This document shows positions 1 through 64,000 of a DNA stretch of 64,000 nucleotides, piece after piece (within the stretch, counting starts at the first letter, position 1; each line of letters starts with the position of its first letter). The position numbers and the translations under genes were made by a program. Location: NCBI RefSeq assembly GCF_030684315.1, contig NC_081369.1, positions 9,958,035 to 10,022,034 on the forward strand, given 5' to 3'. The notes below the pieces were generated by a model. The model was given only the letters and a program-made list of their open reading frames with translations. It ran no database searches and had not been told where the DNA came from. Origin of the DNA: Stegostoma tigrinum (Eukaryota).

Positions 1-1290
1 AGGGTGAGCAGTGATCCCTGAAGAATTCTGCTATGTAAATTTCTCCCAGCTCCCACAACCCATTGATCACTTTTTTCCACTTCCTATCACATCCAAAATT
101 TGAATCCTCGTTGCTACAGACCATTTTATTCCAATATCTGAAAAGTACTCCACTCTTTCGTTGTGTATGATTATGTCAAATGCCTTTTGGAGGTCCATTA
201 TTACCACGTCAGCAACAGCTGTTTGTAGATCAAGTAGCTTTTTTCCTCAGCACTTAATGTTAACTGTTGCCAAATGCTCCAAAATACTCGTTTTGCTTAA
301 CTTTGCTTTAGGAAACCCATGATCACTTTCTTTAATGACACCATTTTTTCCAAATGACCATTCGTTTTATACCCAGTTGTTGCTTCGAGAATTTTCCACA
401 CGAGGGAAGCTTAACTAACTGTCCAGCAGTCGCTTACATGTTTCAACAATGGTATGACACTTGGTATCTTTTTGGCCTTCGATAATGTCACTTAGTCTAA
501 GGGAGATTGATGCAATGACACTGCCTCCGCATCGTCATTCTTACTTCCCTCATCAATATTGGATATCTCATCATTAAGGGAGCCGCAGCCTATCCAGTAC
601 GCCATTGTTTCTCACCTTTATACCATCGTTGTATTGAGATGTCGTCTTCATTCACTATGGCCTTGAATTCATCTTCAAACGTTTAGGTAACAGAGTCTCC
701 ACTGGAATTTATTCATTGAGCACCATGAGGTAATATCGTTGTTTGGGTCAAATAAGCAGTGAAATCCCAGTCCTGAGTTGATGAAACATAAGAAGAGGAT
801 GCAGTACGTCACATGCTCGGAATCTAATTCAAACATTTGCCACCAGAGTTCAAATACATGCTTTAGAACGCAGGCCACAATATTCTATACCTATTATTAG
901 GCACCAAAATACCATTTCTATCATTGCAAGTTACTGTTGATGTTCAATATGTTTATGCCAATTTGGCTTTTTTTTTCTTTCATACTTACCAGAAACAATT
1001 AGCTGTGATCTGCTTCAATCTTCACTAAATATCCCTTGACACTTTAGTGTGCTCTAATAGATTCTAGAATCTTGGAAAGTTGTGTTCAGAAATTTGAATT
1101 TACTCAATCATTCCTATTTCTCCTAAACCATTTTCAAGCCTCACTGCCGTCTGCTAGGCATTCAGAGTCTTCCTGTTTCTACCCGTGCACTCTTATGCAA
1201 GAAGGGTTCTGCAAGCTGGAGAATGTGCAAAACAATCCTCCACTTTTATCACAATGTACAGTCATTTGCTTGGGCGTCTGAATTATTCCG
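1..1290 (-). mobile_element. Decayed CR1-like RT fragment
   Basis: gtcaaatgccttttggaggtccat is the reverse complement of an MDLQKAFD-like motif, and other CR1 remnants are present. Confidence 0.5.
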
Positions 1291-1771
1291 AATGAAATGT
1301 GCCTGCAGCTGTTAGAAATGTAAAGACATAGAAACTCATTGTATGAGATCAACGTGAGGAAGCAAGAAAATCAAAAAATCTTCCCTATAATGTAATGTAT
1401 GGTATGGTGGGGAGGGAGTGTGCTGGTGGTGATATGGGAGGCTTCTGGCCAAACTTTAGGGCGAAGTTTGTAGATCAAGTAGCTTAAAAGATCCATCATA
1501 GTCTTGGCACGTGGTTAGGCAGGTAGGAAGAATGGGAGTCTCCCATGGTCAGCCATGTTTGTTCTGGAGTGGCACCCTTCAGTTTATTATCCCCAGCAAT
1601 TTGCTACAGTCTACCACAAGAGCCCTAGTTGTGGGCAGACCGGATGAGAAAAATGCATTATTACAAAAGCATTTTACATATTTCCTGCGGCAATAAATAA
1701 AGACGTACCCGTGTAATTGACCCATCATTTAACCAGACAGAGAACCCACAAGCGGGGTAACACTCCGAGGA

Positions 1772-1865: not shown

Positions 1866-3039
1866 CATTCCGAGGAACTGGGTCAGTTGATCACTCTTTG
1901 CAGTTACTGTGTGTTTGGAACTTCTTAAAACTGCTTAAAAACAGTTGTGCTCAAAGTGGTTGGCAACGACTTTTTGTGTCCTATAACTGTTGATCAATAG
2001 AAACCATTTTGTTATTCATTGAAATTTCTCCATGGTGTAAAACGGTTGGATTTTAATGTTATCAGAGAGATAAAGAGCGAGATATAGCTGAATGATTCGC
2101 ACCTAGCCACTGTAAGAGAGAGACAAAGGTAACAAAGTATGTTGTGAAGTGCACTTAAGGAGTTCACAGAGAAATGACTGCAGATATGTTGTGTGAGTGA
2201 ACAAAACCTGGGACAGGTGAGATGTTAATGTGATAACATCCCATTGAGTTCTATACTTCTATAAATTAAAGTCATTATCTGCATTTGATTCCTATACAGA
2301 GACTTTAATTTATAGAAGTAAAATCTTATCTAACTACACATCTGTATGCAGACACTGCCCTGAAGCTTCCTGACTGAATTAAAATTAGAATCAAACTGTT
2401 TTCAAATAGGGTTAGGTGGGGAAAATTAGTAAAGGTGTGAAACCTCTAAAGCATGTAACTTCTGTCGCTGGAAAAGGGGCCAGGGCACTGACTTTGTTCT
2501 AGCCAGACACACTGGCAACTTGAAATCAGCATCTGTCCGGGACAACAACTCGAAATCGCCTCCTGCCATTAGCAGCTACTTCTCTGGCAATCGATACTAT
2601 ATGCTGGTCGTTTATGTTGTTGATGTCATAATTGTTTGGTATCATGTTTTTGTCTGTTGTAGGAATTGTTTTATGTATCATGCCATTGTAAATTGTGAAA
2701 TCGTTTTATGTATCATGTCTTTTGTAAAGTATGAAAAGCGGGGACTGTCCGCTGCTCGGAGAGAATGGCTTACGAGACTCTGCACTCTGTGCCGGGTTAA
2801 GTACAGTGATTCTCCACAGCTTGTACTTGCTTGGTAATAAAAGGATTTGTGTTTTTCTAAACAGGTCAGTGTCTTGTTATTGCAGCAAGTCCGTGAAGGT
2901 CTCCGAAAACGAAACTGACACAGGCAGAGGATCACCTATTGAAATTGGCAGGTGCAATGTTGCAAGCATGCAAGAGAAGGGATCAGAGCTGTGAACTCAA
3001 TCTCCAAGGCTACGCATCCTGTTGAAAGGACAGGCGGAT

Positions 3040-14726: not shown

Positions 14727-14952
14727 TTATGTTTGACCTGCCGATTTTTGTTGACGATGTTACACTTCATTTCAAGATCTGCTGGACAGCACAACAGACA
14801 CAATCTAATCCACTTTCTTTTAGCATGGAACAACAAACATAGGGTGCCAATCGGCATAGCTACGTGTTTCAGTTTAAAGAAATAGTTGACGCTTTGACAG
14901 TGGCAAACCAAACGTGAGACCAGTCAGCCATCAATTCGAGATTTAGCTCGGA

Positions 14953-15013
14953 ATGTCTGTCGTTGCAATGGCGCGGTTAATGGTCTTGTTGCTGTTGTGT
15001 CCAATTTGCACAG
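14953..15013 (+). pseudogene. Leader exon of paralogous VJ receptor pseudogene (MSVVAMARLMVLLLLCPICT)
   Basis: Hydrophobic, with a phase-1 donor CAG|gtatct. The start context gctcggaATGTCTGT resembles gctcagaATGTCAGT of the intact gene. Confidence 0.7.
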
Positions 15014-15213
15014 GTATCTTCTTATCCTTGCTCTCAGGCATCACATTAAAAACTAGAGTTCTTACCTCATTACTATATCACTTGAATTGAATGTAGTTCG
15101 TTCCTTTGTTATCTTATTGCTCTTCATTATTTCCATGTACAATTGTGCCCTCAAGTATCTGTTTTTGCATAGAATACAATCAATCAATACGGAGGATTTT
15201 TAAAAAATGCTAG

Positions 15214-15528
15214 TTGTGGCAATTACTTCCACCAGCTTATCTCAACCTCCCAAAGAGGCAAATATCTTCAGGAATAAAGACACCATCCTCTTCTGCGTCA
15301 TCCCGCTTTCCGTTGACAATTTAGGAGTCATTAGTGGAAATGGGGAGAGAATAAATATCTGTAAAGAGGAGCAGATAGCAGGAAACATATTGGTCTCAAA
15401 AATAAGTGAGGTATTTCTTTTGGATGTGCGAAACGCAACGCTTCATGACGCAGGGCTTTGTAATTGCGTAGTAAGCCTTAAGGGAAAAGCTAGTCAGAAT
15501 GAAACTGGAACCAATCTAACTGTCGGCG
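15214..15528 (+). pseudogene. Degenerate VJ-type V exon, paralog of 46628-46948
   Basis: SQPPKE..LFC...LDVRNATLHDAGLCNC...NETGTNLTV. The middle is homologous only in a shifted frame (*WKWGENKYL*RGADSRKHIGLKNK versus WWKQGKSEYLQDSGDGRKRFGMENK), and that frame has stops. The donor is mutated (G|ggaagt). Confidence 0.8.
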
Positions 15529-17354
15529 GGAAGTGAAGGGGGAATAGGAATATTCAAGACGCTTTGTTGTCAATAATCTTTTATGCCATTTTTGAAGGTA
15601 TACAGCAGATTGATGTTTACTGTATAACTCTGTAAACAACGCTTAAAAGCACCTGAGCTTTTCTTAGCCATGGCGTTTAAAGTGGCGTCAATATCAACCT
15701 GGGTATGGAATATATAACAAACTTATTATCATGCCAACAAATTCAGGCAACCAGGAATGTAATGACTAGCTGCTGAGAATCCTCAGCAAGGCACGTAGAG
15801 TTTGCACACAGTTAATATCTCAGGCCTGCAACCTTGATAAATTGGATGTCGACGTATTCTTTTCAAAATATAGCTTTAACTTCAGATATTTTTATACTAA
15901 GGCTCACCACCATCCCTCCTCGTACTAGATTCCTCAGCTCTTTGTGCCTGTCTCAGCAGCAAATAGAGCAGCTTCTAGATAATCAATGAGACAACGTTTC
16001 AATCTTCTAAATTTCTAAACATTTCACTCACTTTTGTTTTTGCGACCTGACCCATAGACATTGTGACTCAAATGGACACACACTGATCTATTGTTATTTG
16101 CAAGAACAGGTCGAATGAGCGTACCGTTCGTCTCAAGTCTGTCACATCTTTCCAGCAACCTGATGTTCTTCATCTTCTGTTTGCAGCATCTCCAGTTTCA
16201 ATCCTGATTTTTGGCAAAGTCACCTATGGACAATTCATAAAAGTCTCTAACTCTCCGATGTGGAATTCCTCGTGATTTTACTCTCCTTAGGTATAAAAAT
16301 GGCACGGTAATCACAACAAAGATAAACACGATTAATAAGCAGAATGGTGGTGAACTTTATGAAGACTCCAATTCTTTTTAAGAGTCACAGTCTGAGGGGA
16401 ATGGCAACAATTGTGTCTGTTTGATAACACATATCTACTCCAGATTTCCACCATTGCCATCCACAAAGTCATCAATCACCATTTAATTATATGACCAACA
16501 GGCCAAGACATGAAGCCTGCAATTTGTAACACTACATTGAATTTATTCAAATGATTAATCATGAAGGTAGTTACAAAGTAAATTCCTCGAAATAACACAG
16601 CCAGAGGATCCTTCTACACAAAACAAGAATCACTGAAATAAGACAGCAAATAGGATAGGAATAGGCTATATGCCTCAGCAAACATATTTAGCCACCAATA
16701 AGGCAACTGTTGACTATCTGCAGTACTTCAACGTTTCAGTCCCATCACCATGTACCTTATGGCAGTATTGACGATTCTGGTCGAGGTATTGTTGGAGTCT
16801 CATTGCCAACTAGAGCACAGAATACAAGTTTTACAACATTTGAATACTGCTATTCCTCCTCATTCAACATTAACTCTTGAGTCATTATGACGCCTGTGCC
16901 TATATTCTCGAGACAGAGGATTATATCACTACGATATCCTTTAGGTAACATGAAAAAATTCATAAGGCATAATGCAACAATTTTATTCTAATACAAAATT
17001 ACCGATTGTGGAAAGAGAAAATCTGAACGTCCACCACTCATACAGGGAAACAGCAATATTAAAATGTGTTACGGCGGTATGAAAAACAGAGCCGTTCATT
17101 CATACAGCTCTGCAATGTTTAAAATTTGTAGGCAAAATGATTGCTGCAATGAGTAACCGTATCTATGTTTAGATAAGATTTTACTTAATTTATTGTTATT
17201 GTCACATTTATCTAGGTACAACGAAAAGTTTTGTTTTGCGTGTAGTACAGGCAGACCATAACATACAAAGGTCAGAGGGTGATTTAACACAGCGAGGACG
17301 CAAAGAAATGTTTGTCACAATAGCCAACATCGGAAAAAAAGAGAATGAAGTTCA

Positions 17355-21700: not shown

Positions 21701-22040
21701 GAGCTCTAGCAAACCTCCGCCCAGGATATTGGTGTCCCTCCAATTCAGGCACAACCCACTCTCCCTGTACAGCTCCCACCTGCCCCAGAAGGTATCCCAG
21801 TGATTCAAATATCTGAAGCCTTCCTGCCTACACCAGCTCTGTAGCCACCTGTTTATCTGAAATTACGCCCCATTTCTGGCCTCACTAGCCCACGGAACCT
21901 CAAGGGCAATCTATGCTTACGTGCCTGTGGCACTGGTACTAATCCTGAGATTACTACTCTGCTCGTCCTGACTTTTGGCTTCCATCCTAACTCCCTATAT
22001 TCGCTTTTCAGTTCCTCATTCCTTTTCCTCACTATGTCTC
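18703..22040 (-). mobile_element. CR1 LINE, decayed: ORF1 C-terminus, endonuclease, RT (internally deleted), 3' tail
   Basis: RFARALREGLN (ORF1 end), LKCVYFNARS and VVMGDINF (APE), DWRVANVFPLFKKG..NYSPV, GVLQESVLGPLLFVIFIND, and WLIEFNTEK..HFGRSN. Confidence 0.92.
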
Positions 22041-23914
22041 TCTTCTAACAATCAATTACCTGCCTTTTGTGAATAATCTTACAAAGCTTGGGATTGTCTT
22101 GCCTGTTACATTATTGACTTGTGGAAAAGATGATGCTTTTGATTTGCATGCTACCATCTATGATCTCGCCCTCAAATCCCCTGAACACATAATTGACCTG
22201 GTTTAACTTGCAGTGTATTTCTTTCTTTTCGTTACGACTACCTATGCTCATTCCAAATGCCCGTACAATTAATAATTAATTAATTAATTCGTGGCATGTT
22301 GCAAATGCTGCACCATGTCTGTCAAATGTGATTTCTCTTTCACAATATACATCAGCTTCTTCGAAGTAGATCATTGTAAATTTGTCATATTTGAAAGATA
22401 TGCCTGCATTTTTCAAATCAAGAATGAAAGTCTAACATTGAATAACTCCTTTTTTGTCTCTTCTTCTACAGTAGGGTGACATTTCCTTCTTTCTAACCTC
22501 TTTAAGCCATTATAAAACATATAAAAATTGAAAGTTGGTCAACAATGCGCTATCTCCAAAGGTATTGCTTACAATGTTAGGATTTACAGAATATGCGTGT
22601 TTGGGAAATTATCAATCTTCCATGCCAACAGTTTTGTCAAAACAACCTCTTTACTCAAGTAATTTCCTTTAAATCTTTTTAACTCTAGTCTTTGGATATC
22701 TAATTCATTTACGGCAGTCTTATTTTTGTTAGTTCATGCTCATACCCTTTTCTCACTTTCTTCATTAGTGTACTGGTCCTTTTTCTGTTCCAAACTGCCC
22801 CCAAATCCCATGTTCATTAGTATTCATTAATGCCACTGCCTTTTTATTTTAATCTTCTGAAATAATTAACTTTATTTGAAAGCAATAGATGGCAAAATTT
22901 CATCGAATTTTGTTCCTTGAAATAATGTACTTTTGTGGAACGTATGATCATACTTTAAATATTATGCATTGCCCATGAACCATCATTTATTTTAATGTGC
23001 TGTGTCACCCTCCTCAGTCAATTTGACCCTCAAGCCTTCATGATTTTCTTTGTTCAAGTTTAAAATCCTGGCCTCAATTTGAACTGACTAACGTTCAAAT
23101 GTTATATAATATTCCATAATATTATGATCATTCATTCCTGAAGATTCATCCACAAACAAAATTGTTGAGCAACCATTTTTCCTTTCACACTGCTAAACTT
23201 AAAGTAACTAATTCTCCAGACAGTTGCTCAACACCCTTCCCTACATGCCAGTCTTACAACCTGTAGAAATTCGTCCTCCACTGCATTAGTGCTCATTAGG
23301 TATACCTGACAAATTCACAGGTTGATGGCTCCGATGATTTCGCATTTAGGGTTAAGGCTACTGCTTATCGCCAGTGAAGCTGACTATACGGATGCAATGT
23401 TCTTCAATTAATGACACTTCATTGTTTTTCTTCTCTATTTAACTTGTCTACTTTCAGTTAATATTCTGCATAGCATTGAGAATGTATCCTAAGGAATTGC
23501 CTGCAGTCTATATTTTTCTCTTTGCAACGGTGAATCCCGTGGTCGTCTCAAATGGATAAAAAACTCCACACCTTCAGAACGCTTCACACAACTGCGCTCT
23601 CTTTCACAGATTATTCAGATCTTCAGCCATCCATTGCGGGAACGAGTTTGTTTTCATATTAGGTTTAGAAAGATAAGTTAATATTATTTATAAGTGTTGA
23701 TACTATGAGCTATGATGATCTTTTTAAAAAACTGCATCAATGTCTCTTTTTCGATAATAACATGAAATAAATCAGAACTCAGCACCAGGCATATAATCTT
23801 TGCAGGCTGATGGTGAACAACATTAGCTTTGAATTTCGGATGTGCTGCGGCTGGATTGGAATTTCTGGTATTCAAGATGATTAATGGAATGAAATTCAGT
23901 CTGAAGAATTTGGA

Positions 23915-25060
23915 AGATACAAAGAATTGCAAATGCTGAAAGTCAAAGTCAATACAACGGAGAGTGGAGGAACACATGGGCCAGGCTGTATCAGTGGAGT
24001 AGGAAAGTCGACAATTCATGGGAAGTTCGAGCACATCATCAACTTCACCAACACCTTTTGCCATGACCTCAAATTTACCTGGACATTCTCTAACACGTTC
24101 TTCTCCTTCCTGGACCTCCCAGTCTCCATCTCCAGCAACTGACTCAGCACTGAAATCTATTTCAAACCAGAATCCCATTGCTATCTTGACTGTACCTCCT
24201 CTCACCCAACATCCTGCAAAAATGTGATCCCATGCTTCCAAATCGGTTGTCTCCACTGCATCTGCTCCCGAGCTGAAATGTTCCACTTCCAGACATCGCA
24301 GATGTCCTCCTACCTCAAGGACCATAAACGTACCTGTGGTTCATTATGCCGTCACAACAACTCTTGCATTTTCCACACTACTGCCCTTAGACACCCTCCC
24401 CCCAGCAATAAGGATAGAGTCTGTCTGGTCCTCACATACCACGCCACCAACCTCTGAATCCAACGCATCATCCTTCATCACATTCGCCAACTGCAATCAG
24501 ACCCCATCACCAAAGAGATATATCCCTCCTAACCCTGCTTTCTGTAGGGATCACCATCTCCACAAGTTCCTTTTCGACTCCACATTCCCTAGCAACAACA
24601 CCACATTCAGCAACATTCCCTACAGCCATAGCAGGTGCTCCAGTTGCCCCTACACCTTCCATCTCAGGTCCGTCCAAGCCCCCAAACAATCATTCCATAT
24701 CCGACAGGGATTCAACTGCAAGTTTTCTAACCTCATTTATTGCATCCATTATTCCTGATGTGGTTTCCCAGACATTAGAGAGACCAAGCACGGAATTGGT
24801 AACTTATTCATGGAGATTCAGCACTCTGTGTGCTTTAAATAATTACACCTTACAGTTGCCAGCCATTTCAATGCCCCTCCCACTCCCCTGGCGACTTGTC
24901 CATCATGGGCCTCCTCCAATGTCACAAATGAGGCCACATGAAAATTGGCTCACCCTATGTTGCGACATTGGAGATTACGGTACAATGGACTCAACATAGA
25001 GTTCAGTAGCTACAAAATCTGGCCACCTCCAGACTCATCCCATGTCCAAACCTCTCTAAT
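23915..25060 (+). mobile_element. Older Neptune-type PLE fragment with inverted 5' terminal repeat
   Basis: FINFTNTF..LKFTW..FLDL, LVLTYH and NLIYCIH are homologous to the 12.7-14.7 kb element. 23915-24015 is an inverted pLTR-like piece. Confidence 0.8.
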
Positions 25061-36720: not shown

Positions 36721-39700
36721 CTGCAAGATTAATATTTTGAATTGATGTTAATGAGCCGTTGTCCAAGTCTTGGTAACTATGTTCAGTCACTTAAATTAAG
36801 ATCATGGTGCAAGGGTAAAGTGGGCATAGTCCCTGAAGACTGCTCTCTCATGAGAGGGAGGGGCAACTGATGGTGGCTTAATTTGAGGGTTACCACTTCT
36901 CAGGAGGGTTCAAGATGGTGAGAATTTCATACTCATACTCACTTCAGCCAGTACAATGTTGGTATCCTCAGCATTGCAAACAGGCTGTCCAGCTAACTGA
37001 GCTAAGGAACCCCTGACTTCGGTATAACACACAACCGAACCAATGAGCTTATCACTTTTGCATGATTGTTAATCACAATTGTGATTTTTTTTCTGATCTA
37101 TTTGTCAAGCTTACCTGACCATACATGGCTCTCTCATCGTCCTGATTACTAGTTGGACTTTTTCTGGGTTTTTTCACTTCCACTGCAGTATAATGCACAG
37201 CCTCATCCAATTCTCTCTGAATGGACCAGAAAGGAATAAAATGCTTGGTTATATGGTAACTGTTGGCATCAGCAGTTTGCACACTGCTGAACAAACAGGG
37301 GACAGATTAGGTTCAACTGGAAATGAAGTACAAAAGCTGGAATTCATTCGACTAACATAAACTAAATTCTTAACACAAAGTGGACACTAGAACTAAAATT
37401 TAAACTTGCTCCCTTCTATGTAACAGCACTATTATTTAAAATATCTGTTTCAATGAAAACTCTTGGCACATGGAAAGATACAATTGATCTTTAAAGATTC
37501 CCATCTATGTTCTATTCGCAAAGATAAAGGCAATTTACCTATTAGTTATACAGCATTGTTTGCTTCTAATTCAATGCTTCTAATTCATAAGTGAACATCT
37601 AACCATCGCTTTTAATGGCATATTTTGGTTGGATAAATGTTTTCAATAATTAGAGTTAACGGGATTTTGACATGATTATGAAATAAAATTTCGTGACATT
37701 AAACTTTAGTTACATTTTGAATAGGTCAGAATGAGTGAGTTAACATACCGACTCTTCCCGGTGGGTTGGTCCAGTTAAATAATCTTTATCTATAAATGAA
37801 TAAGATTTAGTGTTGGTTAAGGGATTCCTTATTAAGTCAGTTTACATACCAGTGAATGCAGAGCTAATTGTCAGTCAGAAAAAAAACAAAATAAAAACAA
37901 AGTCTCAAGTTTCACATTGTGCTGGTAGCATTTGAGTTGCCAGCCCTTGGCGAGAAAACACTGTGTGGTGAGGGTATTTTGTTTCTCGCTTAGGTGCTAA
38001 GTGCTTCAAACAGTATGGGGAATTTCCATTGTGGAGATGATTCTGCCCTACTGTGCCCAGAAAGCAGGCTTAAAAGTCTATTCGACCATCTATTCAGTTG
38101 TATTAAGATCTATACAAGTTGGTTAAAGGGGCTTTTTACTCCTCAATTTATACTTATTTTCTCTTCTACACAAAATGTGTGATCATATGTTTGCCAGGGT
38201 ACATTTCATTCATCATGCTGAAAATGGACATTAATAAAAATTGCTTTTTTTTACAGGATGCTGTGCACTCTTGCAATATAGATTGCATTTTAAAACAATT
38301 GAGACCTAATGGATGCAAAAGTAATGTGATTTCCATTATTAAGTAATATTCGAGAGGCTCTCCTAAATCTTGTTCTTAAATCTTTGAATAAAGTCAACGT
38401 TTTGCAAGACTTACAACGATTATTCTGCAGTCGACCTCTCCTCCTAATGACGATTATTGGCACCAGAAAAGTCATTCCAATCACCACACATCCAAGCAAC
38501 CAGAAATAAAGTGAGTTAACGACGTTGTCTACAGAAGTAAGGTGAACATTAATCATAGCCGACTTTAGCAAAACCTAGTATCCAAGATTTATTGTTTTAA
38601 CTAAGGTGCTAACTGTAATAAATCCAATTTGGCCCAGACTAAACGCCCTCAAAAATTTGGCAAGATATTCAAGACCATAACTTAGTCTCATTAAACGGTA
38701 AATTTCAGGCATTTTGTTCCACATGCAACTCGATTAGTCAAACTATTGGATTTCAAGCAAAATGTACTTTATTCATTGGCTATAGTTAAAATAAAACAAA
38801 AGATGGGTGGAATTTAAATAACTTACCCCCACTGGGAAACCTAAGAGAACAATAGATGCACAAACTATTATTCTTTTACTGTTCCAGCATAGCAACATTC
38901 CATCAACACACTCAAAGCAAAAGACAAATTCAGAAAGTTGATTAAAGTCCCACAGTCAGAAGGTAACCCATAACTTTTGGCTGCAGCCAAGAGGAAATAA
39001 AAAACATAGCTTCCACTTTTTCAAGACCTCAACAGCAACTGCTGAATGATAAGACTAAAACTGTTTGTTCTGCGTGAGCTTGACCACGCCCATTCAGGCT
39101 CCTTTTATTTTTCCAACTTGCACAGGCCTGAGAAACTGTTCAAAATCTCTCTGAATAAAAGGCAGCATAAATACTTTAAAGCTACAGCATCATCACAACT
39201 CAACGTTATGAAAGCCATAGCAAAGGGTGTCTATAAATAATAAAATGTGAGGCTGGATGAACACAGCAGGCCAAGCAGCATCTCAGGAGCACAAAAGCTG
39301 ATGTTTCGGGCCTAGACCCTTCATCAGAGAGGTCTGCAGTTCCCATTATCTCCGGTGTCTATAAATATTTTTGATATGATATTTGAACAACCTCTACTTT
39401 TATTGAACATTTTAGATTAATCTGTGCAGTGGAAACTAGCATTTTCAAATGCTATTATAGAACCCTGAAATGAAAAACCATCCGACAACATAAGGCATGT
39501 CCATGTTCTGTATTTGTTTGTCTGTTGGCATATTTGGTGCCATTTTCGCAATAATTTGTGCACTGCTTCCATAGCATTCTATATTTCAGGAGACATATTG
39601 CTGGAGAATCTCTGCAAATCTATGAATCTGTGAATAGAAAACACCACCAACGATTTGACACCAGTGGTCCTTGTTCTGAATTATGTTATTTTTTTCTCCT

Positions 39701-42700
39701 CCGCAAATATTGCCGGATCTGCTGATGCTCTCCAGCGACTGCTGATTTTTTTTCAGATCTCCTGTATTCGCATTTCTTTGTTACATTTTAATCTGGATTT
39801 CCAGAATTGGTTAAATATGTCTTTTCACTTATCTGTGTTTATTTTCTGTGCCTACCACTGAATAGTAAATAGGACCAATGGGTATTCAACTCATTTAGGT
39901 TGTATCTGTGGCGGTAAAGACTTATGAATACAATGAGGTGCAGCACAAACTGCGCTGTAGTCAGCCTGACAGTATATATTTTCATAATATTGTGAAAGAG
40001 AGTTGAGTCAGATACTCTGTAAATGGCTGAAGAGCGAAGTTGGCTGTGGGTCAATTTCAGCACTCTAAATTAGAAGCAGCTGAACTTCATTAGACTACAT
40101 GAGCAAAGGCTGTGATGTAACATAGTACAGTGATCAGACATAATGGCTTAAGATGGGAGTTAAAAGGGGAGCAACTCACGTGTCAACGTGCCTCATGTCA
40201 GTGGCAATGAACAACATTTTATTAACAGAGAAACCTGTTGCCATTGTGACTGAGTAGTTAGCAACACTGTTGCACAGTACCAGGGACCTAGTTTCAATGG
40301 CGGCCTCAGGCAACTGTCTCTATGGAGCTTTCACATTTCCCCCTGTGTCTGCGTGGGTTTCCTTCAGTGACCTGCAAAAACGTGTGGGTTAGGTCGATTG
40401 TCCATGCTAAATTACCAATTGTTTCCAGGGATGCGTAAATTAGGTGGGTGACCCACGGGGGCTACAAGGAGAGGATAGGGGATTAGCCTGGGTGCGTTGC
40501 TCTTCAGAGAGTCAGCATGGGCTCGTTGGGCTGAATGACGTGTTTCCACACTGTAGGCATTCTGAGGAAGAAACTTAGAAACTTTTACTAGAAACATAAG
40601 AGTACATATGTTGGGTTACAGAAATGTAACTACTGATTTAATTGGATGTACAGAATGTCAATATTGGAAACAATGTGAATTATCTGAGAGAATTTAATTG
40701 ACAAGTAACGTAACTTAGATCTAAACATGCCATATTCAGTTTTGAAAATATCAACATATGATTTTAATGCTTTCTAATATATTTCCCATGGCATGTCGTT
40801 ATACTAATGTCTTGAGCATTAATCTGTAAGAAAGTAACAATTAGTATTTTACTGAAAGAGACAGTGACTGTTTCTTCCATTGGCCTCGGACACTCATACC
40901 TTCTTTAAATTTAGTAACAGTATAGGTGACAACAGCTGGGATCTTGAGAGACACGTGAAATACCATACAGGTATAGTTGTCTTCTGCTTGTTTCACGTCA
41001 GCTAAAATGCTGGAAACCTTATATAGTCCATCGGTTCTCTTCTCTATGCTGTTTTGTGCTTCTAATGCAGTTTCAGCGCCATTTTTATACCAAGTTAGGC
41101 TGAGGTTCTGTGGAAAAAATGGTGCTGTTTCACACACAAGATTCAAAGACGCGGATGAATTTCCTTCAAATGGCCTGGAGATAATCTTAAGTGGGGTTGG
41201 TGGAACTGTAAAATAAATAATGCATGAATCAATTTGAGTCATTGGACTCATTTGGAACAAATTTGATTTGTACTTACTTTAAAGTGTTGCTGAAGAAACT
41301 GATTACCTTTCCCTTTAATGTTAAAAGGCCATCTACACCTATATCAAAGACACCGAAATCTGGCCAATGTCCCCGAATTATGAAATATACTCATTGAGTT
41401 ACTCAGTAGACAGAAACATACAATTATTACTATGCAGAATACAGGCGATGCAGGCCATTATACCTACTGGTCAAATTAATATTTCACTCAATGAGAGACA
41501 CCCGTCTTCGGCTGTAATCATGCACATAGTCCTTTTCAGAAAATAGTCTAATTGCCTTTTGAATGATTGTGTTCGTGTCCACATAGATGACAACGACATG
41601 GAAGGAGTAAAAAAAAAGTTCTGCTGAGGGAATATGAGCAGCAAGAATTGCATTAAGAAGCTCCATTAACACGAACTTATAAAGCAATAACCTTCTGAAT
41701 GCTGCCCACATCACAAATGAGCTATCGTACGTTAAATTTGATGAGAACATGATATAAAGGTCTCAAAAATTAATGTATTAGACATACTTTCGGGTCATAA
41801 GACACTGTCACTAGAAATGATGGAAGTGGGAGGAGTAATACTGGGAGCAGCCTTCATCTGAATCATGCCAGTGTCTGTGTTCAGGCGAGTCGTGTCGTGC
41901 TGGGAAATCTTAGGGAACAAGAAGTAATTTGACAATAGAAAACAATGCAAGCGTACATCGTAGCAGGGAAGGGTGTAATGATCAGACAGCAGCAGGAAGG
42001 CGCAGCTTCTGCAAAAGTAGATGCGCATTTGAGTCTGTCGGTTAAGCCACAGGTTTCAAAAATAGAAAAAAGGACTGATCGAAAGGTTCTGTACCTGCAT
42101 GCTATTAACATTCGGTCAAGAACAGACATGCTGATAATGCAAATATAAATAAATATGCCTGACTTGATAGCCGTTTTAGAGACCTGCTTGCAAGGTAATG
42201 AAGTCTTAGATCTGAATATCCAAGAATGCTATATCTTGTGGAAATGATGGAAGTGTAATCTTTTTATTTAAAAAATGGCAATGGTAATGCCGGAAGGGAT
42301 CACGTTGTTTGAACGCTCAAGATGTAGAATTAATTTGAATGCAGCTGAGAAGTTGAAAAGGAATGTCTTGTAGGGGTTGTACACTGACCCACTGTCAGTG
42401 ATCATATTGCAAGTTGTGGTGCATGTAAATATGGTAAAAGGGGCTTGTCTGAAAGATAGTCCAATAACCTGGATTTATTTGGATTTGCATATAGATCGGA
42501 TGAATAAAATTTGCAAAGATAGCCTATCAATTAGTTAATTAAGTATTTATAACTATAGTTCTTCGAATAATATGTTCTGGAGCCAATTAGGCAGCATGTC
42601 ACTTGGCATAAGATAATGTTCAATGGAGTAGAATTTATTAGTAAAATGATAGAGAAGGCATTCTCCAGCAGCAAGAATCATAATAAAATTGAATCTAACA

Positions 42701-45700: not shown

Positions 45701-47532
45701 TAGCCTTGGATGCATGTCAGTCTGTCCTTGCATATTTTAACGCCAAGGGACGGGTAGCCTCCCTAACTTTCACATTCCCCATTAATGGTCAATCATTTTT
45801 TTCTCTTTCACAATAGGTCAAGTTGTTCATTTCTCTGGTAAAGAGAGAAGCAAAATATTTGAATTAGTATCTCATTTACTTCCTGCACCTCTGAGTGAAA
45901 ATTCTTTTCCTGGTCATTAATCTTGTCTGTCTTTTGTGTTTCTTTATAATCATTTGCGCACTTTTGGAATGATTTGAAATTCCAATTTGTGTTAAAACCC
46001 AATCTCTTTTTGCGCTTTCTTTTCTCCTAATGTCAACTTTTTTTACTTTTGCTCTGGAGTTTTTATACTTAGTGTCATTCTCGATTGTATTTACTAACTT
46101 GAATCTGATAGGTCACAACAATTGAAGTCTAATGCTTTTCAAAATTCAAAAACAAAAATAAAACTTGGAAGCAATCCGTGTGCTTCCATATTTCAGGCAC
46201 AGATAGATGATAACGAGGAACCTGCTGTTAAAACCAAAGCCTCCAGATGAGATGAATTTGACAATCAGATTACAACTGGTGAATTACTCATGTGCATTTA
46301 AAGAATAGAGGATTAGACCACATCGTCTTTCAAGTGGCTGTTACGTTGACTTATGACAGGACAACCATGTATGCTTCAGAAAATGGGCTAAGAGTCTGAA
46401 TTTACTGGAAAGACACGAAGACATTTCAGTTCGTCACTTCCTTGAAGTGTGTTCCAGACATTAGCTATTATACCCAAGATTCATACTTTACATTTAGAGT
46501 TCGATTCTAAATGCCTGCATTGAAACGTGTGACATTGAATGCCTACGTAGCTCTTTTGTTTCAAAATATCCTCATTTATGATTGATATGCTCCCCACCAT
46601 TGGGCTGTTCATTTGTTCTGCACTTACCATGAACAATTAGCTTTGACCCTGTTCCATTTCCTTGAATGATTCCGTGACACATCACTGCACAGTAATAGAC
46701 TCCAGCGTCTTGGAAAGTTACATTCAGCAGGCCGAAAGTGCGATACCATTTATTTTCCATACCAAATCGTTTTCTGCCATCGCCACTGTCTTGCAGGTAT
46801 TCAGATTTGCCCTGTTTCCACCAGCGCACGGTAACGCAGGTTACATCTTGGAAGCTAGGAAATCTGCACGCCGAGATGATACTTTCTCCTCTGGTTACAG
46901 TCACTTCTTTGGGTATTTGGGTCACTCTGAACGAAGTGCGGTCTGCAGCTGTCAAGAATTGTGTCAATTACAGGCTAATTATTTTACACATCGTACGTTG
47001 AACTAAGAAAGAAGGGAACGGGCATGGATCGAGCGGAAATAAACCGTAATAAATTGATTTACATAGATATTTACAACGGCTAGCACCCCTCGCTGCCTCT
47101 GAACCAAATGCTCCGCATTGGAGTCAATTCCGCACTTGATGACTAAAGAAGGCGCAATCAAAGATGGCTGTACTTGTTTATCATTAACCCGCAAAATATT
47201 CCAACACGTTTATATCAGGCGCTTAGAGCGGGAGAATTTCCGGCTCAGCCATGATTGAGCTGGACTCGCGCCCCTCAAATTATACCGTCTGACCATCGGC
47301 GGGCGTAGTGTTTGAGGATAAAACCTGTGATTCAAAAATGAACGTAAGACACGGATTTCTATCCCATGGGCCGCTAGACTTGTAAAGATAAAGACAGAGA
47401 AAGCAAAAAACAAATTTACTTCGCTGTTATTTCGGAAGTAGTTCGCAAGTTATCTGGGGTAATCAATAAGAACCTACCTGCGGGAATTATCCTGTGGAGG
47501 ATCAGGCACAAGAGAACCAGACGCACTGACAT
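36700..47532 (-). CDS. Non-rearranging IgSF receptor, L-V(J)-C1-TM-cytoplasmic ITIMs (SIRP-like / NKp30-related VJ-C1 type), 7 exons, 319 aa
   Basis: Exons on the minus strand: 47532-47478, 46948-46628, 41205-40900, 38528-38415, 37789-37749, 37216-37115 and 36720-36700. All introns are GT-AG, with phases 1,1,1,1,0,0. The exons total 960 nt and read open to a TGA. Confidence 0.88.
36815..37015 (-). mobile_element. Decayed tRNA-derived SINE in intron 6
   Basis: The reverse complement begins gggttccttagctcagttagctggacag (A-box-like head). Confidence 0.45.
37115..37216 (-). CDS. Exon 6: cytoplasmic ITIM exon (RELDEAVHYTAVEVKK...ERAMYGQ)
   Basis: Pyrimidine tract followed by cattcag|. Contains VHYTAV (canonical V-x-Y-x-x-V ITIM). 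Donor CAG|gtaagc. Confidence 0.82.
37749..37789 (-). CDS. Exon 5: 41-nt cytoplasmic mini-exon (YKDYLTGPTHREES)
   Basis: ttcatttatag|...|gtatgt. It converts phase 1 to phase 0, exactly as needed to join exon 4 to exon 6. Confidence 0.78.
38415..38528 (-). CDS. Exon 4: transmembrane segment plus basic stop-transfer
   Basis: DNVVNSLYFWLLGCVVIGMTFLVPIIVIRRRGRLQNNR. Acceptor ttctgtag|, donor T|gtaagt. No charged residue in the TM. Confidence 0.88.
38614..39197. mobile_element. Candidate solo LTR in intron 3
   Basis: TGT...ACA termini and similarity to the LTR-like region at 34140-34760 (ctttatt..gttaaa..acaa block). No exact TSD. Confidence 0.45.
39240..39353 (-). mobile_element. Short PLE-terminal hammerhead element in intron 3 of the VJ-C1 gene
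   Basis: Core at 39300-39327 (GAAACAUC variant). Perfect 14-bp TSD ggtgtctataaata at 39226-39239 and 39354-39367. Confidence 0.85.
40245..40565 (+). mobile_element. HE1-type SINE
   Basis: agggacctagtttcaat (B-box remnant), gtgtctgcgtgggtttcc, catgctaaatt and tttccacactgtagg. Confidence 0.8.
40900..41205 (-). CDS. Exon 3: Ig C1-set domain
   Basis: LVCETAPFFPQNLSLTWYKNG...DGLYKVSSIL...YTCMVFHVSL matches the C1 signatures (C-x4-F-x-P..W and YxCxVxH). Acceptor ttttacag|, donor G|gtatga, 306 nt, phase 1-1. Confidence 0.93.
42080..45050 (+). mobile_element. Old, highly decayed CR1 LINE in intron 2 of the VJ-C1 gene
   Basis: VLYLHAINIRS (APE start), WRIAN..LF and QEAFNKV remnants, followed by a CR1-like 3' tail. 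Confidence 0.65.
46628..46948 (-). CDS. Exon 2: Ig V-set domain with J-like G strand
   Basis: Reads VTQIPKEV..C..W..R..L..DAGVYYC..GNGTGSKLIVH. Acceptor ttgacag| (an in-frame alternative ctgcag| would start the exon at 46942), donor G|gtaagt. Confidence 0.93.
47478..47532 (-). CDS. Exon 1: signal peptide MSVRLVLLCLILHRIIPA
   Basis: ATG at 47532, hydrophobic core, and a phase-1 donor CAG|gtaggt, as is typical of IgSF leader exons. Confidence 0.8.
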
Positions 47533-49794
47533 TCTGAGCAACTGATTTAACTGATCATGCTCTACTTCTACTCCACGTCTGCAATTGTTGTGCATAATAT
47601 GCGGTCAACTTTTGGCAAGATGCTGCGCGATGACGTTTGGCATCCTGTAACAGTGGGTTCAGAAACAAAAGGCTTCAGTTACTTAATGAAACTTCGAAAC
47701 TTTTGCAGGAATTCAGTTGCGCAAATCCGATACGCATTGGACAACAAGCGGTGAGGAAAATAAACTTGGCGATGGACTTCCAAGGAATTGTGGTCTAATG
47801 CAAATTTCCCTGCCGTCACTTTTGTTTAAGACAGAAGGAACCACTTTTTTTTAACAGGAGATTCGTATCAGTGCTCTTTCAAAAAAAAAGTGGGGCGGTA
47901 TTTCCACTCACACGGCTCTTTTATAGCGCAGAATTGTCTGAAGAAAGTAGGCAAACCCTCCCGTTTCACTGCAATTATTTTCCGAAGTATTAAATTTAAA
48001 GTTTCAGAAAGCCTTTTTGTTAAGTGTTGGAAATCAGTATGTAAATACGTGGAATGCTAATGGCAAGGTGTCAGGGGGCCATCTAAGTAGACTGCCAGCT
48101 GTGAAGGGTGCAGGTGAATACAGTGGAGTGTGTCAGCGGGTAGATGTCTGACAACTGGAGGAAGTTGGGCTGGTCGGTTCCCGTCCTTGGAGAAAATGAG
48201 TAGATTGGAACCAAAAGGGGTAGATGGGGTGAGGATAAAGGGGAGCAGGTCTTGGAATCTGAAGGAAGAAGGGGTAGGAGGTCCGATCCAGAAGGCTATA
48301 GAGGAAGCGTTTCCAGAGCAAAAGAAGGGCAGTAGAGTTCAGGGCAGATGACGCAGCTCCAGTCCAGTGAAGGAAAGGGAATGTTGTCTTCTACCTACAT
48401 TCTATAGCGTTTGTGCAGTGCAAAGAAACCTAGCGCGGTGAAGTCAAGCAGTTGTCGGGTGAGCGAACCTAACGTGGCGGAGAGTGAGTTCCCCCGGCAT
48501 TTGTGGCGGCGGCGACAATAGTCAGGGCGAGGCGGCAGTGAGAGCAGGCAACCACAGGTTGAGTTCGGTGCGGACTGGAGGTGAGGGCGCGGCCTGGAGG
48601 CAAGGCCCAGAGTGGTCTGCTTGAAATACAGTAATGCTGAACTTTTTGTTTCTTTACTTATCTAACTTGTTCCTAATGGTTTGTACATAAACACCTGCTA
48701 AGATGGTGCAAAGAACCGCAATGCTGAATTATTTATTTATTTCTTTATCTTTTTTTTCTGAAATCATCTAGCTAGGTATCATTGTACCTGTAAGTGGCGA
48801 CATTGTAAACATTTCACTGAATTCATTTGAGTATATTTGACAATAATCCTCATTCTAATTCTAATTCAAAAATATCGTAATGAGTCATGGCCCGTGGGTC
48901 AAGGGAGAATGAAGATTGGGAACGGAGAAAATGGGGCTGAGGGGCATGGATACCGTGTGTACAGTGAAAAGTCGGGAGGATTTGGAATTGCTGAATATGT
49001 TTGGGTCTCAATGTGGAGCAGGTGAAGAACTCTCAGCGGGTGAAAGGAAGTCGTAGGCAGCGTTGGAAGAAAGTTGGATCTGTTTTGAACTGATGGCGCA
49101 GCGAGGTAGGTGGAGGAATTACGGTGATGTTGAGTTTGAGAGTTGCCACGTCAGTGTTTAGGGGGTGCAAAGTGCCTGGTGAATGTGTAGTGGAAGGTTT
49201 TTGAAGTAACTATGCATCTAATAACCTAACTTCTCGTGATTATTTTAGTTTATTTCACAGAACCATCTAATTTCTCCAGTTTAAATGATAACTTGACAGG
49301 TTGTCAAGCCGAAAGGAGTGTTCAGTGAAATCTTCAATTCCCAGGCAATTCCTTCTGAGTATGTTCCGAAGTAAATTCTGCAGAGTCCCCTTGAGTAACT
49401 CCTATCAATGCTGGAATAATGATTGCAGCGGCACTGGAAAATCTGGACCCTATTGATTGATTATTTAAGCTCCGAGACATGTTACAGACAGGAACTCAGC
49501 TGTATGAAAACTGCATGAAATAATGAAACTGAGCACACAACGTGGCGTTGACTGAGGCAATGACTACAATTATAAACCAAGCCTGTCTATGATGCAAAGT
49601 CCTACTTAGTAACATCGAAGGGCCTGCGCCAAAAGAATTGTCCCACAATCTGGTCAAGCAGAAACTTGACGTTGTCATGCTCCCGAGGTCATAAGTGTTG
49701 TGTTCAGATAATGTCCCAGGTTTCACAATTACCAACCCGAGAATATAATGCCCCACTGGTAGCAATGCCCTGCCAGCGATACATAGTTGGGAAA

Positions 49795-50030: not shown

Positions 50031-50599
50031 TAAGTGGGAAAGAATCTCCCTGAGGGTCTGCAACATTAATTCCATATGCATAACATATAGCTGCAAATAA
50101 AACATGAACAAGGAAAGCTGCTGCTAATTTACATCTGCACCTACCTTGCCACGTTCATCACACACCCATCCAACATCAGGCATCACAAACCTCTCACGCA
50201 ATGAATCAATACATCAGTATGTCAACACAACTACATGAAAAATAGAGAGTAGCAATGGGACAGCAGAAAAATTTTTTTGCTAATTTACTCTGCTTTGCTA
50301 ATCAATCTGTTCAGAGGAACACAACTGTTCCGCCATTAAAGGGCACCCGGGCCAGAGCAGCATGCCCGTGGGTTTACGCCGTCATCAATGCTGGATTACC
50401 GAGCTGCGGCGTTGGGTCTATCGCCACCTGTTGGTACGTAGTTGTATCTGCAAGCAATGTCTGTGCTTCCTTAACGTAGGTTGGTTTGATCAAAATGACG
50501 GTCGTGTACTTTTGTCTGTTGATAGGATTACGATGTCCTTGCCTTACTTAAGTTTATCTAGTGCTATTCTCTTTGCTGTGTTCAGATTGTCCCCTTTGT

Positions 50600-52300
50600 T
50601 CCTTCTGTGTAGTGTGGGGATCATATTGTTTGTCATTATGAGCAAACCAAACTACGACAAGAAAGTACAGATATCGCTTGCAAATACGACCACTTACTAA
50701 CGGGTGATAGTCAACACCACAGCTAATTAAAAGGATCACCCAGACACTGAAGCGATGAATGAATGCAGGGCAGATAACCATGACAGACTTAATGAAAATG
50801 AAACCAGAAGGCACAAATACTCCTGCTACTATTGGCCACCTAAAGCAAATAAACCTGAGATCGTTCTCAGTCCCATTATTTCCCTATCAGGCACGCCATC
50901 ACACAAATTGGCCAAAGACCTACAACAGAGATTGAAACACTTAGTAGATAGATCATCCCATTCTATCGGCTTAACCCAAGATTTCCTTGATACCCTCAAG
51001 AACATAAAAATCAGTGATGACCAAATTATGGCATCCTTTGATGTCACATTTTTAGTCACATCAATCAGCATCCCACTAGTCCAACAAAAACAATGGCCAC
51101 ATTTATAGAGGAGACAACAACAAACAAAAACTAGCAGCTCCATCAACAAACACAATACAATTAAATGGCTAGAACTTTTCCTCACTACACACTTGCTTCA
51201 AATGGTCAAATATACACAGGTCAACGGTTCCCCAATGGGATCACCCATCTAAGGACTCATCGCAGAAGCAGTCATGAAAAGACCAAAATGCCCCAACCTC
51301 AGGCGCATTCAACCTAAACTATGGATCCGGAATGTAGACAAAACATTTGTCATTATTAAACGTAACAAATAAGAATAGACCTACCAGCTCGTCAACAGCG
51401 TATTCACAGGGATTAAGTTCCCATTGGAAGAAGAATACAACAATCAAATTCCTTTTCGGGATGTTAAAGTAGAGTGATTGACAAACGGGGAGTTTCAAAC
51501 GGCAGTATGCAGAAAAGCAACACATACAGATCAAATCTTCAACTTCCACAGCAACCACCCTAACGTCGACATTCAAAGCTGCATTAAGACACTGTTTAAA
51601 TGGGCCAGGACACAATGTAACACTCCAGAACCACGCAGGAATTGGAAAGAACACTTACACAGGATATTCACTTTAAATGGATATCCCCAGAGCTTCATGC
51701 ACAAATACCTACAAAACAGCAACAACAGCACGACACAGTACAACTGAACACATTGGCCACAGTGCCCTACATCAAGAGCACCGGAAGTGACAACAAGTTT
51801 CCTAATATCGCTGGGAATCATGGTGGGCCACAAGCCCATAGCCACTCTATGATAAACATTTACAACGATTATAAACCACATTCCCACAACATGCAGAAAG
51901 AAAGTGGTTTGCAAAATGTAATGCAATGACTGCCATAAACAGTACATCAGACAAACAAGAGTGAAACTAGCCTTCAGAATACATGAACATCAGCTAGCAG
52001 CAAAATGGCATGATGAACTATCTTTAACATCGATACATAGAGGCAATGAAGGCCATCAATTTAACTGGGACAAAGTAACCGTGGTAGCCCAAGCAAAGAA
52101 TGGATATGTACAGGAATTCCGTGAGGCATGGTTCTCCATGCATACTTCAATCAACAGACATCTAGAATCGGATCCCATATAGAAAACCATACACATCAAA
52201 ACCGGAAATGGTACTTTTCATGAAAACAGGCTGCACAGTATCAATTCCAGGTGGAGTAGAATAACATCGCTTCGTCAGAAGCTCCACTAATGATGCCACC
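50600..52300 (+). mobile_element. Poseidon/Penelope-type PLE, decayed RT plus GIY-YIG
   Basis: Motifs PIISLSGTPSHKLAK, MASFDVT, GSPMGSP, FNFHSNHP and HQFNWDKVTVVAQAKN..EAWFS, with many stops and frameshifts. Confidence 0.88.
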
Positions 52301-61983: not shown

Positions 61984-62202
61984 GTAGCATTCAATCTTAA
62001 TTGAGACTCATCAGAAAAATTTAAATTGCTATTTGTTTCATATGAAAATAATTTGTAATTCACAGCAGGCTTGTATATTCTCCAGTTACATGTGCAAGAT
62101 TCTTAATTGTCTTTTTTGGTATTTTATTATTCCTTGCTGTACATTGATTTTTTTTCTGACGTATGCAACTTTTCTCACAGTTCTGCTTTTATTTTCTCAT
62201 AG

Positions 62203-62507
62203 CCACTGAAGTAACTTCAAACGAAGTAGATCAGTTTTCCAAACTCTTGAAGACCACTGGTGGTAATAATGTTTCCATGTTTTTCACATTTCCCATATTT
62301 GAAGATGCTCCTGAAGTATTTTGGTGGAATGCAGTGCAGAATTGTTTCTGGAACTCGACAGCAGATATCTGTTTGATGGACAGAAAGCAAGGAGATCACT
62401 TCATGTTCTCAATATCACTGTTGCAGACTCCGGAATATATTATTGTAATACAAAGCTTCAGTAAACTAATAACGGAGCTAGGAGTGGATTGCTGTTGAAT
62501 GTGTGTG
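62203..62507 (+). pseudogene. Degenerate VJ-type V exon, second paralog
   Basis: Acceptor ctcatag|. VDQFSK..GNNVSMFFTFP..VFWW has the B-strand Cys replaced by Phe. After a frameshift it continues ..DSRYLF..SLHVLNITVADSGIYYC..*..LLLNV. The donor is mutated (G|ttaagt). Confidence 0.78.
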
Positions 62508-64000
62508 TTAAGTTTCATGGTACTGGGGATAGGAACATTTCCAGTGTGTGAAACAAATAAAATTTGAGCATTATAACGAGAACAAAACCTCTTCGTAGCG
62601 AATTGACTAAACACTGGCCGGGTTTAAATCGATTTGATGTGCAAGATCCATTGATTCTCTCCTCGTTTGAGACAATTGCAATCATTATTGAGACAAGATA
62701 GTCAAACATGGCCACCAGTTAAAACCCAGACTGAGATTAAGTAACGGGAGAAGATGAACAACTTCCTCGATAATCATAACATTCGAACAGTAATAGCATC
62801 TTCGAGATAATGAATTCTATGAAAGTTTAACTGAATTCATTTCACCACAAATAAGTGACTTATTGCGAACTCAGGATCGAAATCTCCTGCTACAGCCTTG
62901 GAGACTTCATCAAACAGCTTGCATTTCAATCCACTGTTTTGAGTTGCCAATCCACAATTCTTCTTTTCGCGAAGTTGACTACAACTTCAATCACGTTAAG
63001 TTTTTTTTTATCATTCACATTACGACAGTAGAATTATGTCAAACAAGTAGAACTGAGCATAGATCAACTATGATTTAAATGATTGTCAGGGCACGTTCGA
63101 AGGGGCGAATGGACTATTCTGGCTCCCAGTTTTGAGCATTATACAGTACAGGTGTATCCATTGATTAAATGTTTGCGATAACAAACTAAAGAAATCCTAC
63201 CGACTTTATGCAATCCTGCAAACCACCCAGGGGACAGGTGTTGATATTGATGTCAATGCTGGTTTGCAAACATCGTCCTGAACATGCAATATTTTGGTTA
63301 TGAACATTGCTCGTTTCTGTGAATTTCTGCCGTCGATCAGTTGGGTTATGTTTTTTCATATACTCATAAATGTATTGTCCTTTGCAAATAAGCTCTCACG
63401 CTGCATTTCTCTGAATGCATTGTTTTGGGAATTATAATTCATAATATTCACTCGTAGTCCCAAACCTCATACAAACGATACAAGTCACTTCAGTATATTA
63501 TGCTCATTCGTGGACAATCAATTGCATAACATGAGAAAGCTAAAACAGATCAATGGTTAAGAAATATAATAATTAACTGAGGGATCAATCCAACCCAAGA
63601 GTTTCAATGCAGATTGAACCAGCACAGTACTTACACGAAAATTTAAATTGTTTAATTGCTGAATAACATGGCGGGCAGGTCAGAAAGGCTGAAGGAACAC
63701 GGGGGTGGTTAAAACGTTGAAAACAAAGAAAACATGCAATATAAGTTTTAATTTACAATTCAATATGCCTTCTATTTATGAATGCATCCAATTATACAAC
63801 AGCCAGAGACATGTCTTGGATAACTGCAAATTGTCTCAAGTTTTGCGGAGTGATTATCTCTTCTAGGCGGACTGATATTTTCCCCCAACACTCTTTGCTT
63901 CAATTGCTGTCTGAACACTCGCAGCCAGATTCACCCTTAAATCCTTCTCACTTTAACAAAGGCCACTACCCGAGCGACTGGCCAATCGCCAGATGCTGGA

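Follow-up and report, generated by a model that had tools for sequence, protein, structure and literature searches.

The stretch of DNA that we analyzed, referred to here as the window, comprises 64,000 nucleotides of the Stegostoma tigrinum contig NC_081369.1. Its minus strand carries a single VJ-type V exon (46628..46948), which is flanked by an AG acceptor and a GT donor in phase 1/1 and encodes 106 amino acids (46946-46629). The product shows the C27-W42-C86 pattern and a J-like GNGTG motif and scores 27 bits against Pfam V-set, for which the cutoff is 26. The codons of the canonical C27 (46868-46866) and of the F-strand C86 (46691-46689), with W42 between them, leave a gap of 58 residues, in agreement with the first-pass annotation of this sequence. 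The two additional cysteines which that annotation had described were also found: C37, at W-5 in the BC loop (CDR1; 46836..46838, minus strand), and C90, at F-Cys+4 in the FG loop (CDR3; 46677..46679, minus strand). Its estimate of about 16 residues from W to the D-strand arginine holds for R58, but the arginine located within the predicted D strand (residues 59 to 65) is R60, at a distance of 18. The framework has several oddities compared with the receptor family described below: residue 25 is S where 76 of the 98 family proteins have F or M, G72 is seen in none of the 98, A26 is also unusual, and the N-glycan site of the family (residues 22 to 24) has been lost in the Stegostoma copy. The J-like motif lies within the same GT-donor exon as the V segment, and a loose scan of the 64 kb for RSS-like sites gave three matches (6428, 17288, and 56137), none near the V exon. 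Both results support the earlier view that this is a germline, non-rearranging receptor.

The V exon fits into a predicted gene of six exons, all on the minus strand, in which 326 codons are open and all five introns are GT-AG; the splice model is based on splice sites, phase, and homology. A 55-nt leader exon (47478..47532), with an ATG at 47532 and a GT donor, encodes a hydrophobic signal-like peptide, and its phase fits the V exon. Between V and the transmembrane (TM) domain there is only one C1 exon (40900..41205; Pfam C1-set, 42.6 bits). It is followed by an exon for an uncharged TM segment with a basic stop-transfer run (38415..38528), by a first cytoplasmic exon of 41 nt (37749..37789) predicted from AG/GT sites and phase, and by the last coding exon (37073..37216), in which an ITIM (VHYTAV) and another tyrosine motif (AMYGQV) precede the stop codon. 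A 14-nt mini-exon considered near 38840-38827 would break the phase and was discarded. The two-tyrosine tail resembles that of other family members, such as P0003, and for most of the gene model the identity to P0006, P0003, P0156, and P0012 is 39 to 47%. The best PDB matches of the C1 domain are SIRPα (34.4 bits per domain) and SIRPγ (31.6 bits per domain), at ranks 1 and 2 of 956. No flanking marker genes were seen among the open reading frames of the 64-kb window.

The window also holds three broken V copies, where the first-pass annotation had counted two pseudo-paralogs. The copy at 990..1308 (minus strand) has stops and frameshifts and has lost the canonical F-strand cysteine and the tryptophan. 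It has kept both extra cysteines (TGC at 1199-1197 and TGT at 1041-1039) at the same positions as C37 and C90, which overturns the earlier impression that the paralogs did not obviously share the pair. This copy matches the V exon in 62% of nucleotides and 38 of 106 amino acids. The other two copies, the ends of which are approximate, lack the extra pair and belong to different subfamilies: the one at 15210..15530 (plus strand) is closest to P0003 and lies near a leader (14953-15013) and a broken C1 (about 16190-16475), and the one at 62200..62520 (plus strand) is closest to P0080. One intact and three broken V copies make the pattern of a birth-and-death cluster.

We searched 1.84 billion representative sequences and obtained 194 matches, of which the best 150, together with cluster members, were used. 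At least 98 of the 164 retrieved proteins belong to one family (39 bits or more against V), with 90 distinct V sequences, and in 74 of the 98 the C1 domain was also matched. The 12 family clusters whose origin was looked up are without exception chondrichthyan, from sharks, rays, and chimaera, including Scyliorhinus, Mustelus, Chiloscyllium, Stegostoma, Heterodontus, Heptranchias, Hypanus, Hemitrygon, Mobula, and Callorhinchus. Their automatic names include "SIRP beta-1-like," "PTPNS1-like," and "tapasin-related," and for the V-C1 part of P0005, SIRPα ranked first among the PDB matches. ITIM/ITSM-like motifs were found in 27 of the 57 family proteins with a detected TM segment, a few of the 57 being false TM picks, and several short-tailed members have a TM arginine, as in paired receptors. 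The gene shares with the family the V-C1-TM plan, the WWKxG motif, a canonical cysteine spacing of 53 to 59, and a place inside the family clade. It is a receptor of a known kind, of which the cysteine pair most likely makes it a derived variant. A word-based protein search gave no match at near length and matched 1 of 28 candidates at longer length; an alignment search among proteins of 789 to 2,250 amino acids gave two matches, both unrelated. Searches of the open literature listed no paper on this receptor family, though one may exist among subscription articles (on VJC1 genes, PRARP, or the evolution of SIRP) or in supplementary material. Two papers on the origins of antigen receptors (PMC12227049 and PMC10751288) count UrIg, UrIg2, NCR3, and PRARP among the relics with a non-rearranging VJ(-C1) design; the former does not use the term "SIRP," and the main text of the latter uses neither "SIRP" nor "ITIM."

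A single-exon VJ followed by a C1 domain might alternatively mark a germline-joined immunoglobulin or IgNAR cluster. Germline-joined immunoglobulin clusters are known in cartilaginous fish (PMC4622739), and VNAR and immunoglobulin chains do occur among the PDB matches. We nevertheless regard this reading as highly improbable: there is one C1 domain, with SIRP as the best match, followed by a TM segment and a two-tyrosine tail, the nearest sequences are the 98 receptor-type family proteins, and the V exon has no RSS-like site nearby.

The distance between the canonical cysteines is 53 to 59 in all 91 complete homologues, with 58 residues in 54 of them and 53 in 27. Judging by these sequences, the short spacing is a trait of the whole family and not special to this gene. 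Other non-rearranging V domains have spacings of 56 (frog), 60 to 62 (turtle multi-V), and 62 to 64 (shark multi-V), with one row at 51. We modeled the V domain with AF2 from 74 sequences (pLDDT of 90.5 and pTM of 0.83). The model has strands A, A', B, C (38 to 44), D (59 to 65), E, F (82 to 90), and G (93 to 97), with a helical turn at residues 35 to 37. Residues 45 to 58 form no strand except for a bridge at residue 50. The first-pass annotation had argued that little room is left for C''/CDR2 and had suggested looking for a normal C'' strand in an AlphaFold model; no such strand is present, and C' is reduced to the one-residue bridge. Since no C'' strand is predicted, the domain is predicted to lie between V-set and I-set.

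The annotation had also pointed to VNAR, and in structure searches VNAR did not stand out. Among 48,161 chains, NCAM1 (Z of 14.0, root mean square deviation [rmsd] of 2.3, 96 residues aligned), skate VNAR (Z of 14.0, rmsd of 2.0, 98 aligned), and NCAM2 (Z of 14.0, rmsd of 1.9, 92 aligned) were level, followed by CD79b (Z of 13.6) and NKp30 (Z of 12.9). In a second search the best 50 rows had Z scores of 14.0 to 14.4, and 6 of the 50 were VNAR; ordinary Fabs also reached about 14. SIRP was not among the best 50 rows of either list, which is not evidence of its absence. With Foldseek, CD79b, NCAM, a nanobody, SIRPα, NCAM again, and VNAR all fell within one order of magnitude of E value, and the TM-scores were 0.68 to 0.72 for VNAR, 0.74 for SIRPα, and 0.77 for NKp30. 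The model thus bears out a VNAR-like geometry, as a prediction, but this geometry is not specific to VNAR. The likeness of VNAR itself to I-set domains has already been published (PMC8470474).

The extra cysteine pair, in contrast to the short spacing, is rare. A cysteine is found at the C37 column in none of the 98 family proteins and at the C90 column in 1. Counted over the whole loops of the 91 complete homologues, a BC-loop cysteine occurs in 4, an FG-loop cysteine in 1, and both together in 0, a count made at the level of 50% representatives, behind which further members could carry the pair. We saw the pair only in the gene, in the pseudogene at 990-1308, and in the orthologue of another species, organism B, the contigs of which come from runs X5, X9, and X13 of three studies. 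A further run, X1, is identical to the window and may be where it comes from. Organism B differs from the window at 31 of 401 bases. None of the 28 listed differences hits either extra cysteine codon, and the other 3 are probably beyond the exon, close to the ends of these 401 bases. Conservation of the cysteines in an orthologue, which the annotation had named as a check, is thus found, with both codons unchanged, while 17 of the 106 V residues differ. A loose end in all three runs, read by eye, looks like the organism B counterpart of the 990-1308 paralogue, CDR1 cysteine included.

Between the two species the V exon has a dN/dS of 0.96 (Nd of 20.75 over 246.5 sites and Sd of 6.25 over 71.5 sites), and the two species are even, 8 to 8, as to which has the commoner residue of the family at the changed positions. 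At this ratio, and with a probability of about 70% that both cysteines would be retained by chance, their presence in organism B counts for little on its own. The rarity of the pair in the family and its joint presence in a distant paralogue weigh more. A dN/dS near 1 would fit either ligand-driven diversification or relaxed selection, and S25 and G72 could mean early decay, though the frame is intact.

We placed the gene in a V tree (quick maximum likelihood, 101 rows and 108 columns, midpoint rooted, without VNAR rows), from which 17 of the 98 family rows were left out as isoform duplicates or partial V domains. A single clade holds the 83 family rows (SH-aLRT support of 86). Within it, the gene and its sister, the pseudogene at 990-1308, form a pair (85) nested in a subclade of 40 rows (95). 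Since the extra cysteines are confined to this nested twig and are seen together in 0 of 91 homologues, they are most likely a late, derived gain in one branch, and an ancestral state common to this gene and VNAR is therefore unlikely.

Whether C37 and C90 would bond with each other depends on the local fold. By the register of the tryptophan and cysteine positions, V38 faces C90, and C37 is one residue earlier. C37 falls in the predicted turn at residues 35 to 37 (block pLDDT of 84), and this placement is compatible with a disulfide. The pairing would rely on the turn: were the strand regular, W-5 and F-Cys+4 would be on opposite faces. C37, immediately ahead of strand C, and C90, at the upper end of strand F, would be diagonal neighbors and could pair, and we consider a CDR1-CDR3 disulfide likely. 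The competing reading is that C37 and C90 are not paired with each other, being free, joining two chains into a dimer or one chain to a partner, or neutral passengers under relaxed selection. The dN/dS of 0.96 would suit it, as would the unusual S25, A26, and G72, the loss of the N-glycan site at residues 22 to 24 in this species, the broken state of three of the window's four V copies, and the lone extra cysteines of 19 of 91 homologues. Against it, cysteines in these loops are rare (4 of 91 and 1 of 91), so that a joint gain at neighboring positions is unlikely (a rough product of about 0.0005 per sequence), and both survive in a 36%-identical paralogue (a chance of about 0.13) and in organism B, in a gene whose frame is open across all six exons. 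We therefore rate unpaired cysteines as unlikely, though less so than the other alternatives considered here.

The first-pass annotation had left it open whether the VNAR-like features are convergent or related to the donor of the VNAR domain. Of the two, convergence is favored because the pair is limited to a nested twig, the CDR1 cysteine is at W-5 instead of W-7, the structure scores are tied, and both the C1 domain and the tail resemble those of SIRP; the cysteine pair is most likely convergent with that of VNAR type II and not inherited from VNAR. In VNAR 9djw, the CDR1 cysteine is at W-7 and the CDR3 cysteine at F-Cys+4, compared with W-5 and +4 in the gene. Counted by hand, 9djw has a BC loop of 13 residues, 18 residues from W to Arg, 23 from Arg to Asp, and a Gly at W+6; the corresponding values for the V domain of the gene and its family are 14, 18 (75 of 97 rows), 20, and a Gly at W+4 (85 of 99 rows). 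A motif scan found no VNAR among 179 retrieved proteins.

A donor link would take a different form: an ancestral, non-rearranging VJ-C1 member of the family would have been captured into an IgH/TCR-δ cluster and become VNAR, the cysteine pair still being convergent. The distance of 18 from W to Arg, shared by the family and 9djw, is in line with such a link, and among single-V chains the family profile scores highest against a VNAR, 4hgk (56.2 bits, versus 49 to 52 for TCR, light chain, and CD79b). Skate VNAR is level with the top Z score, the first ESM Atlas match is an "antigen receptor" cluster (0.96), the family, being found in Callorhinchus, is old enough, and reviews allow for an origin of VNAR from a cell-surface receptor (PMC4622739 and PMC6260137). 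The score margins all amount to ties, however. An I-set cluster of the ESM Atlas also scores 0.96 and PD-1 scores 0.95, and the Z score of NCAM equals that of VNAR. The search of the PDB with the family-profile HMM was dominated by multi-domain I-set proteins, and its best 60 rows include one VNAR, with a match that starts in leader residues. P0014 has no VNAR among its 33 matches, and identity to VNARs is 19 to 24%. The C-D link differs in its construction (Gly at W+4 versus W+6, Arg to Asp of 20 versus 23, BC loop of 14 versus 13), and non-rearranging V domains that are unrelated to the family (turtle, frog, and shark multi-V) have spacings of 51 to 62 as well. Descent of VNAR from this family is in our estimate improbable, and we would give equally little credit to the fuller scenario in which the family lost CDR2 before IgNAR arose and supplied the V domain of VNAR, with the branch of this gene later reinventing the type II disulfide in the germline. 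If VNAR did nest in the family, a long-standing question would be answered; the present evidence makes such nesting unlikely.

Taken together, the best explanation, to which we give a probability of about 0.72, is that this exon supplies the VJ-type V domain of a germline "SIRP-like" receptor with a leader-V-C1-TM-ITIM layout, likely inhibitory, with a candidate BC-FG disulfide that was acquired late and convergently with VNAR type II. In SIRPα and other ITIM receptors, the phosphorylated ITIM recruits SHP-1/2 and dampens leukocytes. By analogy, a C37-C90 bond would fix two apical loops and stiffen a compact ligand-binding tip, the tip would bind a surface ligand, and binding would lead to ITIM phosphorylation, SHP-1/2 recruitment, and damped leukocyte activation. 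The ligand is likely to be a surface protein, either self or of a pathogen, because of the gene turnover in the cluster and the V exon dN/dS near 1. The inhibitory gene would be balanced by the paralogues with a TM arginine. The family offers 90 distinct V sequences, CDR2-less by the model, with C1 domains and paired signaling tails across cartilaginous fish. It deserves a place in trees of antigen-receptor V domains and bears on the question of a VNAR origin from a cell-surface receptor.

Among known proteins, the closest are chondrichthyan receptors such as XP_038661932.1, XP_078066559.1, and XP_038662970.1, with which the gene shares the exon plan, the V-C1-TM order, WWKxG and GNGTG, the spacing of 58, and the tyrosine tail. 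The V domains of these "SIRP-beta1-like / PTPNS1-like" receptors are 52 to 54% identical to that of the gene, but the BC-FG cysteine pair is not seen in any complete family V domain (0 of 91). Mammalian SIRPα and SIRPγ are similar in having a non-rearranging VJ-type V with C1-set domains, an ITIM tail, and a V domain that superposes with a TM-score of 0.74. The gene and its family have the single-exon VJ-type V, the SIRP-type C1, and the ITIM tail with paired activating members that mark SIRPs. They differ in having one C1 domain where SIRPα and SIRPγ have two and in a shorter C-D link; bony-fish SIRP-like rows have spacings of 62 to 66. The bony-fish rows P0130, P0053, and P0011, including gar and paddlefish, fall outside the family clade in our quick, 108-column, midpoint-rooted tree, and the hhalign probability of 96.6 for the gar protein P0130 is generic for V domains.

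NKp30/NCR3 also has a single-exon VJ with a GNGT motif and is similar in structure (TM-score of 0.77 and Z of 12.9). It has no C1 domain and signals through a TM arginine, whereas the gene has a C1 domain, an uncharged TM segment, and an ITIM tail. P0089 and P0144, which we take to be NCR3, have a spacing of 64 and lie outside the family clade. Teleost NITRs form germline VJ receptor clusters with ITIM members as well. Matches such as P0136 and P0142, which are presumably NITRs, even have BC and FG cysteines, at W-8 and F-Cys+5. They differ from the gene in having no C1, in spacings of 60 to 70, and in forming a separate clade (SH-aLRT support of 94).

UrIg and UrIg2 share the non-rearranging VJ followed by C1, and UrIg2 is among the matches of the gene's C1 and of the P0005 V-C1 part. 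UrIg is a secreted protein with three C1 domains, UrIg2 consists of ten domains, and both are disulfide-linked dimers (PMC12227049). The gene, in contrast, has one C1, a TM segment, and an ITIM.

VNAR types II and III resemble the gene in the lack of C''/CDR2 (for the gene, by the model), the distance of 18 from W to Arg, the cysteines in CDR1 and CDR3, and Z scores of about 14, with a canonical spacing of 60 versus 58. VNAR is rearranged from V-D-D-D-J and its CDR3 cysteine arises during repertoire formation (PMC4622739 and PMC6260137), whereas the gene has a germline VJ in one exon. VNAR is joined to IgNAR constant domains; the gene has one SIRP-matching C1, a TM segment, and an ITIM tail. 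CDR1-CDR3 cysteine pairs also recur in camel VHH (PMC6260137), and the most likely reading of the Stegostoma gene is a case of convergence, in which a germline receptor has reached a compact, disulfide-tied tip like those of VNAR type II and camel VHH.

In the V exon of the six-exon receptor gene, S. tigrinum and the second species (organism B) differ at five neighbouring B-strand codons (window 46869-46886, minus strand). The S. tigrinum B strand does not have the N-x-T glycan site typical of the chondrichthyan SIRP-like V-C1 family, and a serine occupies a core position that is usually hydrophobic. The paralogue with the extra BC-loop and FG-loop cysteines was read in organism B from the loose ends of contigs from runs X5, X9, and X13, aligned at window 46795-46829. 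Where the window's copy has one of its stops, these loose ends carry a sense codon, so organism B may have retained an intact version.

In the sister pseudogene, a short interspersed repeat apparently splits the leader directly past the ATG (window 1701-1880, minus strand). The insertion's near-duplicate flanks look like a target-site duplication, and the window contains further copies of the repeat, for example around 39340-39235 and 35960-35800. ORF fragments at 12800-14730, 19280-21830, 23680-25000, and 50300-52000 look, on inspection of the ORF list by eye, like degraded LINE-type reverse-transcriptase elements.

The N terminus of the Chiloscyllium protein P0017 aligns to the gene's leader and upstream DNA (window 47497-47643, minus strand), a match pointing to a closely related sibling subfamily without the cysteine pair. 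Additional non-rearranging V families with short spacing between the canonical cysteines (59 to 64 residues) are represented by P0026, P0087, and their clusters. These proteins, from turtles and the horn shark, contain single-exon-like VJ domains in tandem and are automatically named "pIgR-like" or "turtle-like."

Five members of the SIRP-like family, P0045, P0063, P0083, P0101, and P0013, have a short tail and a transmembrane segment with an arginine close to its beginning; they are candidate activating partners for ITIM-bearing members. Two others, P0010 and P0023, have two C1-like matches each. One of those in P0010 precedes the V domain, an order that possibly reflects a mis-joined model. 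P0023 is V-C1-C1, the same plan as mammalian SIRP.
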